Positions 23,748 to 54,819 are shown, counted from the stretch's first letter. The stretch: 64,000 bases of DNA from Escherichia coli (GCF_041248615.1 NZ_CP158426.1), one strand, 5' to 3'. Numbers and translations: made by a program. Notes: generated from the sequence alone by a model not told the origin.

Positions 23748-24227
23748 TTACTTCGTTTTCTCGCAATCCAGAACTGTATTTACAATCATCTGATACCCCG
23801 TGCAGCGACAAAGATTTCCCGCCAGTCCGCGACGAATTTCCGTAATGGTTAATGGCTTCTCGCGTGGTTTCGCCAGCATTGCCGTGGTAGCCATAATCAG
23901 GCCAGGCGTACAAAACCCGCACTGCACTGCGCCGGATTTCGCATAAGCCTGCTGAACATGAGAAAGTTTTCCGCCTTTCGCTTCACCTTCCAGCGTGCGG
24001 ATCTCTTTTCCTTCAGCCCAGGCGGCAAGGTATAAGCAACTGTCTATTGCTGTGCCGTCGACCAACACCGTACAGGCACCACATTCACCCACGCAGCACC
24101 CTTGTTTGACACTTAGCAGTCCTTGTTCGCGGAGTAATTCCGAGAGCGGCGTGCCTGGTGCGGCGTGAAGCTGAAAAGGCATCCCGTTAATGGTGCATTC
24201 GATGGTAATTGTTTCGCTGTGATTCAT
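23748..24227 (-). CDS. xdhC: Xanthine dehydrogenase [2Fe-2S] subunit
   Basis: 159-aa ORF; Cys motifs [11 protein letters not shown] and CGFCTPG; overlaps xdhB by 4 bp. Confidence 0.9.
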
Positions 24228-52914: not shown

Positions 52915-53604
52915 CTACTGGATCAGAAAATGACGGGCCAGTAGTGCACTGGTGAAATTCTTCTTCAAATAAAAGCCGCGTGGCAGCGTCAGAATCCGTT
53001 CGCCCCGGGCACCAATGGCTTCGGTAAGCGCTTTCGCATTCGCTGCTTTCGGTCGTATCTGTAAATACTCCCCGTGACGAGCGGTAATCCGCTCAACCTG
53101 ACCGAGAACAATCATATCCATTAATTCTTCCCAGTCTTCGCGTAGCTGCCGGTCTTCCTCTTCATTCGGGCTCCACAGCAACGGTGATCCAACGCGACGC
53201 TGCGCCAGCGGGATGCTGCGCTCGCCTTCAACCGGTATCCACAGTACGCGTTTGAGTTTGTGGCGCACGTGGCTGGTTTCCCAGGTCACCCCGCTATTGC
53301 CCGTTAACGGGGCAACACAAACGAATGTTGTTTCCAGCGGACGACCAAGACTATCCACAGGGATAGTTTTAAGTTCCACGCCCAGAGCAGCAAAATCTTG
53401 CTCAGGTTTACTCCCTGCGCTGGCACCTAGCCAGATCTCCAGTAACACGCCAATCCAGCCTTTATCGCGTTTTAAATTCTCTGGCGTAACCAGCCCGACA
53501 AGTGCCGCCAGTTCTCCCAATGTATAACCAGAAAGTTGCTGTGCTTGCGCTAACAACTGTTCTTCAGTTTCGGGAGGAGAGAGCAGTGGGCGAGGTTGGG
53601 ACAT
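52915..53604 (-). CDS. mutH: DNA mismatch repair endonuclease MutH
   Basis: 229-aa ORF. Confidence 0.9.
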
Positions 53605-53779
53605 GTCATGATACCTTGATTAAAAAACAAACAGCAATTATGTGCCGAATATTCGCAGTGTAACTTTTTCCACATGCGTTGTTCAATTCTCTGATTTATA
53701 TTGCTTTTTAGGTTGCCGGTAATCGAGTTGCGCAACACTGCAACGGGTTTTCCAAATCTGGTCACTGAAAATAAACAGG

Positions 53780-54135
53780 ATCTTACACCATGTTATCCAC
53801 AGAAAGCTGGGATAACTGTGAAAAACCTCCACTACTGTTTCCATTTACAGCCTTGACGTGCGACGAAACTCCAGTTTTTAGTGGTTCAGTGCTTAACTTA
53901 GTGGCACATTCTGTGGATAAATACGGCATTGGTTGATCTTTCGCCAACCCGTAAATGAGAGGTGTGACCTGGGTCACGAATTACTCTTTTTCATTACTAA
54001 AATTACATGTAATGCATTGACTGATAATGAATATTTTAAAATGTCTATATCGGGCTTATTCAGAATGCTCCGGGTTTTCCCGTAGTAATTCCGTAGTTCT
54101 TCACAACTCTATCCACAGAAAAGGTGAATAAAAAC
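53780..54135. promoter_or_regulatory. DnaA-box cluster in the mutH-rppH intergenic region (DARS2-like DnaA-reactivating sequence)
   Basis: Perfect DnaA boxes TTATCCACA at 53793-53801 and, inverted, at 53912-53920; near-consensus CTATCCACA at 54120-54128; matches the reported DARS2 location. Confidence 0.6.
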
Positions 54136-54288
54136 GGCTATCCACCCCTTCCTCTGTTTATAACTCTGCACATAACTGTGAGTTATTCAATTGTTATTAG
54201 TGTGTAATGCCCTGCAGAGAGTGGTTTACCGTCTTCCTGGAGTATGAAACAATCATTCGTATATAAAGCTTTATTTTGAGGTAGTCCG

Positions 54289-54819
54289 GTGATTGATGAC
54301 GATGGCTACCGCCCAAACGTAGGTATCGTGATTTGTAATCGCCAGGGGCAGGTAATGTGGGCCCGGCGATTTGGTCAGCACTCCTGGCAATTTCCGCAAG
54401 GCGGAATCAACCCCGGAGAATCCGCAGAGCAGGCGATGTACCGTGAATTGTTTGAAGAAGTAGGATTAAGCCGCAAAGACGTTCGAATCCTTGCTTCAAC
54501 GCGTAACTGGTTGCGCTACAAATTACCGAAACGTTTGGTGCGTTGGGACACGAAGCCGGTTTGTATCGGCCAAAAACAAAAATGGTTTCTCTTGCAGCTG
54601 GTGAGCGGCGATGCAGAAATCAATATGCAAACCAGCAGTACACCAGAGTTTGACGGCTGGCGATGGGTAAGTTACTGGTATCCGGTCAGACAGGTGGTGT
54701 CATTTAAACGTGATGTCTACCGTAGGGTAATGAAAGAGTTCGCGAGTGTGGTGATGTCACTGCAGGAAAATACGCCAAAACCACAAAACGCATCTGCTTA
54801 TCGACGTAAAAGAGGTTAA
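54289..54819 (+). CDS. rppH: RNA pyrophosphohydrolase (Nudix)
   Basis: 176-aa ORF, GTG start; Nudix box [22 protein letters not shown]. Confidence 0.9.

Follow-up and report, generated by a model that had tools for sequence, protein, structure and literature searches.

The mutH-rppH gap (684 bp, 53605-54288) in the analyzed window, a stretch of 64,000 nucleotides from Escherichia coli (GCF_041248615.1, NZ_CP158426.1), raises the question of what the DnaA boxes gathered in it do and why so long an intergenic region is conserved. An exact scan returned only two perfect DnaA boxes (TTATCCACA) in the whole window, where 0.51 would be expected per 64 kb. These are boxes VI and V of Table 1, and, as an earlier note on this DNA had claimed, they stand at 53793 and 53912 in opposite orientation. 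Both copies were found in this one gap (Poisson P ~1.5e-5) and together span 128 bp. When one mismatch to TTWTNCACA was allowed, eight boxes fell within 455 bp (53700-54154), that is, 17.6 per kb versus 1.7 per kb elsewhere (Poisson P, 1.7e-6). This corresponds to an approximately tenfold enrichment, and the fragment is the densest 455-bp stretch for DnaA boxes in the whole window.

The gap is also the widest protein-free gap of the window, provided that the doubtful ORF ygdT is discounted; the runner-up is the aas-galR gap (584 bp), which contains omrA and omrB. It exhibited 100% identity to E. coli K-12 MG1655 and, of 5426 complete E. coli genomes, 5424 carried it at an identity of at least 95%. 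In NC_000913.3, it corresponds to 2968978-2969661 (genome coordinate = 3023266 minus window coordinate). The sole annotation within it in two K-12 RefSeq records was the ygdT CDS (48 aa), and no DARS2 feature was present. The length of 680 bp given in the earlier note was thus close to the actual one, but its description of the gap as non-coding has to be read with the ygdT ORF of RefSeq in mind.

To locate the parts of the element, published DARS2 primers and oligos were mapped to the window by exact match (Kasho 2014, Supplementary Table S1, PMC4245941; Miyoshi 2021, supplement, PMC8682772; Frimodt-Moller 2015). Thirty of the 33 tested strings matched exactly. The remaining three came from supplement text that was machine-read from PDF and garbled in places, or had tails that were wrongly trimmed. 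Together with the mutH and rppH flanks and the identity to MG1655, these matches bear out the location and identity that the earlier note had assigned to the cluster, and the alignment with published DARS2 sequences that it had recommended also delimits the core (Table 1). We conclude that the cluster between mutH and rppH is almost certainly DARS2 of E. coli K-12, which regenerates ATP-DnaA, the form competent for initiation, from inactive ADP-DnaA ahead of each replication round. DARS2 was reportedly first described by Fujimitsu in 2009. It is already known and intensively studied, and its identification here is a correct rediscovery with nothing new in it. Nothing was found that contradicts this identification. 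The identity of the element, the positions of its sites, the box enrichment and the deep conservation of its parts were established computationally, and its activity is known from published work. A reading of sequence alone had therefore recovered a functional non-coding element that is unmarked in the RefSeq records examined.

Table 1. Features of DARS2 and its surroundings, in window positions.
Feature	Position	Strand	Basis and remarks
mutH	52915-53604	-	Left flank of the gap
Full-length DARS2	53700-54154		Exactly 455 bp; MutH-2 and MutH-4, primer matches at 53700-53718 (+) and 54136-54154 (-)
FBS6, Fis site, non-essential	53722-53752		Oligo FIS-4U, exact (Kasho 2014, PMC4245941)
ygdT, 48-aa ORF	53790-53936	+	RefSeq, K-12 and other strains
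Box VI, perfect TTATCCACA, accessory	53793-53801	+	Between subDnaAboxVI primers Ksh-34 and Ksh-35
Conserved block TACTGTTTCCATTTACAGCCTTGAC	53833-53857		Between boxes VI and V; without published assignment
FBS4-5	53896-53935		Oligo mapping
Box V, perfect TTATCCACA	53912-53920	-	Within FBS4-5; between subDnaAboxV primers Ksh-32 and Ksh-33
Crucial 21-mer with essential Fis sites FBS2-3	53921-53941		Between MutH-25 (end 53920) and MutH-24 (start 53942)
Minimal DARS2 ('delta-Right'), enough to stimulate initiation	53922-54154		MutH-11 at 53922-53942
FBS1, Fis site, non-essential	53964-53994		Oligo FIS-1U, exact
IBS1-2, IHF sites	54010-54038		13-mers TAATGCATTGACT (+, 54010-54022) and TAAAATATTCATT (-, 54026-54038), 3 bp apart
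Accessory box IV, TTATTCAGA, 1 mismatch	54056-54064	+	Between subDnaAboxIV primers Ksh-30 and Ksh-31; box scan
DARS2 core, 35 bp deleted in the published delta-Core allele	54097-54131		Between MutH-15 (end 54096) and MutH-14 (start 54132)
Core box III, TTCTTCACA, 1 mismatch	54097-54105	+	Same orientation as box II, 3 bp off
Core box II, CTATCCACA, 1 mismatch	54109-54117	+	Listed as DARS2 double box in the ChIP-seq table
Core box I, TTATTCACC, 1 mismatch	54123-54131	-	Opposed to box II over a 5-bp spacer, as published
rppH	54289-54819	+	Right flank of the gap; also named ygdP/nudH

The three one-mismatch boxes III, II and I form the catalytic core; the perfect boxes V and VI do not belong to it. 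On the plus strand, the core reads TTCTTCACA-ACT-CTATCCACA-GAAAA-GGTGAATAA, with the three boxes arranged as 9-3-9-5-9; the literature writes the same core from box I, followed after 5 bp by inverted box II and after another 3 bp by inverted box III. According to a review, an opposed box pair 5 bp apart, with no more than one mismatch in either box, was the criterion by which chromosomal DARSs were originally found. The stretch CTATCCACA-GAAAA-GGTGAATAA (54109-54131) was the sole opposed pair with a 5-bp spacer and no more than one mismatch per box to TTATNCACA in the 64-kb window, and box III lies head-to-tail with box II, 3 bp away on the same strand, as in a DARS. The single mismatch in box II of DARS2 is as published; box II of DARS1 has the perfect consensus.

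The perfect boxes, on which the earlier note had based its call, led to the right locus and function, but both are accessory boxes outside the minimal element. In published plasmid assays, boxes IV to VI were dispensable for stimulating initiation; boxes V and VI alone would therefore not make a DARS. For the third, near-consensus box, which had been placed at 54120, one-mismatch boxes were indeed found around that position, but 54120 itself falls in the 5-bp spacer between boxes II and I. Likewise, the span proposed for the element (53780-54135) covers the core and boxes V and VI but misses FBS6 and the final 19 bp of the 455-bp fragment, and it is centered on the accessory boxes, not on the core.

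The IHF and Fis sites, for which the earlier note had suggested a search between the boxes, were found at their published places, between box V and the core. In a consensus scan, each IHF 13-mer showed one mismatch to TAANNNNTTGATW, and their separation agreed with the 3 bp stated for IBS1-2 (Kasho 2014, PMC4245941). The subIBS1-2 primers border 54017-54032, which puts the substitution between 54016 and 54033. Measured from the IHF center, the core is 90 bp and FBS2-3 93 bp away, in agreement with the published 'about equidistant'. FBS1 contained a perfect Fis consensus at 53972-53986 (GNNYANNNNNTRNNC, no mismatches on both strands), and a Fis consensus with one mismatch was present inside the crucial 21-mer at 53924-53938. 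Oligos F23U and FBS2-5 mapped to 53916-53953 and 53899-53950, respectively. GATC, the sequence of Dam methylation and SeqA, occurred in the gap only at 53779-53782, abutting the triplet of boxes around box VI, and at 53935-53938, within the essential FBS2-3; both were conserved.

Published experiments on this sequence suggest how these sites would work together. ADP-DnaA would bind the three core boxes, and the two protomers at the opposed boxes I and II would pair head-to-head as an AAA+ dimer. This dimer needs Gln208, and the protomers on boxes I and II release ADP, which the box III protomer does not (published). IHF at IBS1-2, together with negative supercoiling, would bend the DNA sharply and so bring Fis at FBS2-3 against the core-bound DnaA; in the published work, IHF binding at DARS2 needs negative supercoiling, and the loop lets Fis contact the DnaA dimer. 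ADP would then be released, and apo-DnaA would leave and bind ATP. The process would be gated by IHF, bound only before initiation, and by Fis, plentiful only in fast growth. Both proteins have been found to bind DARS2 only before initiation (Miyoshi 2021, PMC8682772; Kasho 2014, PMC4245941). As ATP-DnaA rises, it would nucleate on box V, spread to neighboring weak boxes and displace Fis, which would constitute a negative feedback. For the weak boxes V-a to V-c, spreading of ATP-DnaA from box V, helped by DiaA, and eviction of Fis have been reported (Miyoshi 2021, PMC8682772).

The release of ADP from ADP-DnaA and the regeneration of ATP-DnaA have been published for this exact sequence (plasmid pOA61, 455-bp fragment). 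Deletion of the core lowered ATP-DnaA from 72% to 42% (Kasho 2014, PMC4245941), and extra copies of DARS2 led to over-initiation (published). Published ChIP-seq has three very strong DnaA peaks in DARS2. Converted from NC_000913.3, the 78x peak (2969124) lies near window position 54142 at the core, the 199x peak (2969306) near 53960 at box V and the Fis sites, and the 213x peak (2969501) near 53765 at box VI. The NC_000913.3 numbering was adopted for the peaks since it also fits the oriC and dnaA entries of that table.

Conservation of the locus was analyzed by an RppH-anchored scan with one genome per species, which yielded 80 loci (L004-L083) from Enterobacterales and Vibrionales. In 68 of these loci, the core triplet precedes the rppH start by 153-171 bp. 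The 12 loci without a core were mostly those in which mutH is not adjacent to rppH (Photorhabdus, Providencia, Morganella and Arsenophonus). Specifically, mutH was apart from rppH and no core was found upstream of rppH in L039, L047, L048, L052, L055, L057, L059, L062 and L063. L037 had too little upstream sequence, and in L064 (an uncultured Enterobacterales MAG) and L079 (Ca. Photodesmus) a mutH-like match was adjacent with no core in the usual position. All 68 core-bearing loci harbored equivalents of box VI (+) and box V (-) as a convergent pair, nearly always with the perfect sequence TTATCCACA. The spacing between the two was 117-120 bp, and exactly 119 bp in 48 loci. In most, not all, of 14 sampled loci, an IHF-like site was detected to the left of the core, at a distance of ~86-96 bp.

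In an alignment of 50 Enterobacterales loci, the gap was almost free of indels. Footprint blocks with at least 90% identity were 53771-53815 (box VI region), 53833-53857, 53911-53921 (box V), part of FBS2-3 including its GATC, the core (54097-54133), and three blocks between DARS2 and rppH; the stretches between blocks fell to 10-40% identity. Since the conserved blocks coincide with DARS2 sites and the sequence between them drops so far, DARS2 explains most of the conservation of this long gap. The explanation offered in the earlier note is thus right for the most part, and the spacing is nearly indel-free from Escherichia to Vibrio; the ~230 bp of the gap outside DARS2 are probably promoter or 5'UTR sequence. 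The three blocks on the rppH side (54155-54166, 54176-54186 and 54220-54256) may be promoter or 5'UTR elements of rppH, or more weak DnaA sites. An inverted one-mismatch DnaA box, TTATAAACA, lies in block 54155-54166, 1 bp beyond the 455-bp fragment, and is followed by degenerate boxes at 54167 and 54177.

Four other accounts of the box cluster were considered. That it arose by chance in an AT-rich intergenic region has a probability close to nil: 8 of 100 shuffled versions of the full window did contain TTATCCACA at least twice, but the confinement of both copies to 128 bp of a single gap and the eight boxes in 455 bp have the low probabilities given above, and the position, orientation and spacing of the boxes are kept from Escherichia to Vibrio. 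The statistics and the conservation together rule a chance cluster out. It is also highly improbable that the conservation is due to a small protein gene, ygdT, with the boxes only incidental. RefSeq annotates the 48-aa protein, and its ORF spans boxes VI and V; indeed the whole ORF is contained in DARS2, from 3 bp ahead of box VI to a point within FBS2-3. In most genera other than Escherichia, however, the frame is broken, by stops at varying positions or by loss of the ATG. Conservation by codon position was 0.68, 0.66 and 0.73, with no codon periodicity, and the conserved pieces of the 'peptide' coincide with DNA sites, namely box VI, the block 53833-53857 and box V. The length of 147 nt is preserved, as would be expected if the spacing of the DNA were constrained. 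Literature matches for ygdT mostly concerned the YGDTD polymerase motif, and their titles and abstracts carried no sign of expression evidence. Judging from these sequence features, ygdT is probably not a conserved protein-coding gene. As for other contents of the region, no Rfam match to a structured RNA was obtained at E-values up to 1 in 53400-54500, and a terminator scan of 53500-54400 returned one hairpin (53963-53978), which is the palindrome at FBS1.

DnaA is a repressor or activator at the dnaA, nrdA and mioC promoters, and the boxes might mainly be DnaA operators for the divergent transcription of mutH and rppH-ptsP. A review places DARS2 'in the mutH promoter', the fragment was first isolated as a high-affinity DnaA binder, DARS1 is also in a promoter region (that of uvrB), and conserved blocks flank DARS2 near both genes, including the three on the rppH side and the one-mismatch inverted box in the first of them. 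However, the mutH start codon is 190-310 bp away from boxes V and VI, and rppH is 370-490 bp away. A promoter consensus scan of 53500-54400 gave a single promoter-like match (53664-53637), near mutH and outside DARS2, and the number of matches was no higher than in shuffles. Moreover, mutations in the core, the IBS and the FBS have published effects on the ATP-DnaA level and on initiation, and DARS2 is active in trans from a plasmid. We therefore consider operators as the main function very unlikely, while a regulatory side role of the boxes on mutH and rppH is possible. A sink resembling datA, which would titrate DnaA, promote DnaA-ATP hydrolysis with IHF and act negatively on initiation, would share with DARS2 the combination of a DnaA-box cluster and an IHF site; in addition, its ChIP occupancy (213x) is the same as at datA, and box V has a negative effect. 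The deletion phenotypes are nevertheless opposite, as loss of DARS2 lowers origins per mass (0.8) and loss of datA raises them (1.5; Frimodt-Moller 2015). Over-initiation with extra DARS2 copies and the in vitro release of ADP to give ATP-DnaA also speak against a sink, and the opposed geometry of boxes I and II is a DARS signature absent from datA. The published deletion and in vitro data rule out a datA-like sink as the main function, and we give it hardly any probability.

With the cluster taken as DARS2, its distal half, to the left of the minimal element, showed several features of its own. Box VI is the middle of a second triplet, TCTTACACC-ATG-TTATCCACA-GAAAG-CTGGGATAA (53781-53815, +), which has the same geometry (9-3-9-5-9) and orientation as the core, 316 bp away. 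The two were the only sites in the window within six mismatches of the triplet pattern, and 0.045 hits per 64 kb would be expected at up to five mismatches. The distance between them was 314-317 bp in most Enterobacterales, and the conserved footprint 53771-53815 stops exactly at the third box of the box VI triplet. We infer from this arrangement that the triplet may be a second core-like one. As a second DARS core it was rejected: its geometry is core-like, but box VI has no mismatches and its opposed partner, TTATCCCAG, has three, which exceeds the strict limit for a DARS pair. For Pectobacterium, Edwardsiella and Budvicia, the box strand has TTATCCAAn at the partner's position, and the mismatches there number one or two. 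The strongest DnaA ChIP peak of the locus (213x) adjoins the triplet. Our literature searches found no paper on DnaA box VI of DARS2, and any role given to it here is putative.

The block at 53833-53857 contained ATTTACAGCCTTGAC, for which every column of the 50-locus Enterobacterales alignment had the consensus in at least 90% of sequences, a handful of loci being substituted. Its TTGAC may represent the -35 element of a promoter, and in two species ATTTACAG is replaced by ATCCACAG, a sequence resembling a DnaA box. The block was also scored with a rough LexA weight matrix derived from 26 known SOS boxes. As an SOS box (CTG-N10-CAG), 53833-53852 reached 11.6 bits, below every training box, and ~0.9 such sites would be expected per 64 kb; the candidate was rejected, and LexA is a weak lead at this position. 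A literature search for a link between LexA and either mutH or DARS2 in E. coli returned no such paper. The best LexA-like match of the window was 23772-23791 (AACTGTATTTACAATCATCT, 12.2 bits), likewise below all SOS boxes of the matrix and probably due to chance.

Repeats were found within DARS2 as well. TATCCACAGAAA and TGCnnCGGGTTTTCC are each present in two copies, separated by 316 bp and 327 bp, respectively. A direct repeat, TGCAACGGGTTTTCC at 53739-53753 and TGCTCCGGGTTTTCC at 54066-54080, places each copy 31-42 bp left of one of the box triplets, and its left copy falls inside FBS6. An origin of the two halves by internal duplication was not demonstrated, as local alignment between them reached only z = 2.3-3.0 versus shuffles.

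Because the V-VI pair is invariant (68 of 68 loci), a core-like triplet stands 316 bp (~30 helical turns) from the core in Enterobacterales, and the block with ATTTACAGCCTTGAC lies between the boxes, the distal half of DARS2 might be a conserved functional module with an unrecognized in vivo role, a reading that we hold tentatively and consider rather less probable than its opposite. Such a module could serve as a second DnaA assembly or loading center, or as a sensor tying DARS2 activity to DnaA status beyond the feedback at box V. The fixed V-VI spacing, the second triplet and the unassigned block are constraints apparently not addressed in the DARS2 literature that we examined. If the V-VI conservation, the triplet and the block are functional, the model of core, IHF/Fis and box V feedback would be incomplete for the chromosomal context.

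The element is the same as DARS2 of K-12 in published studies, with no difference (Kasho 2014, PMC4245941; Miyoshi 2021, PMC8682772; Kasho 2025, PMC11724364). With DARS1 and datA, it makes up the three non-coding chromosomal loci by which E. coli sets the ATP/ADP state of its DnaA, and it therefore helps to time the initiation of replication. In DARS1, the three core boxes and their spacers follow the same order and orientation as in DARS2, and the published mechanism of ADP release is shared. When the DARS1 core, taken from the bioD-uvrB gap of K-12, was compared with that of DARS2 without gaps, 24 of 35 bases were identical, including 21 of the 27 within the three boxes. In contrast, DARS1 is ~100 bp long and needs neither IHF nor Fis, whereas DARS2 adds IBS1-2, FBS1-6 and boxes IV-VI and requires IHF at IBS1-2 and Fis at FBS2-3 (Kasho 2014, PMC4245941). 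In vivo, DARS2 and not DARS1 is dominant (published).

Like DARS2, datA (the locus of DnaA-ATP hydrolysis, DDAH) is a non-coding DnaA-box cluster with an IHF site, cell-cycle-timed IHF, very high DnaA ChIP signal and a conserved chromosomal position. Unlike DARS2, it promotes ATP-DnaA hydrolysis, has no opposed I/II pair and no Fis dependence, and shows the opposite deletion phenotype. The low-affinity arrays of oriC resemble the box V region in that a perfect box nucleates cooperative, head-to-tail binding of ATP-DnaA on degenerate boxes, stimulated by DiaA (Miyoshi 2021, PMC8682772). The outcome differs, however: the oligomer at DARS2 evicts Fis and shuts the element off, whereas that at oriC unwinds the DNA (Miyoshi 2021, PMC8682772).
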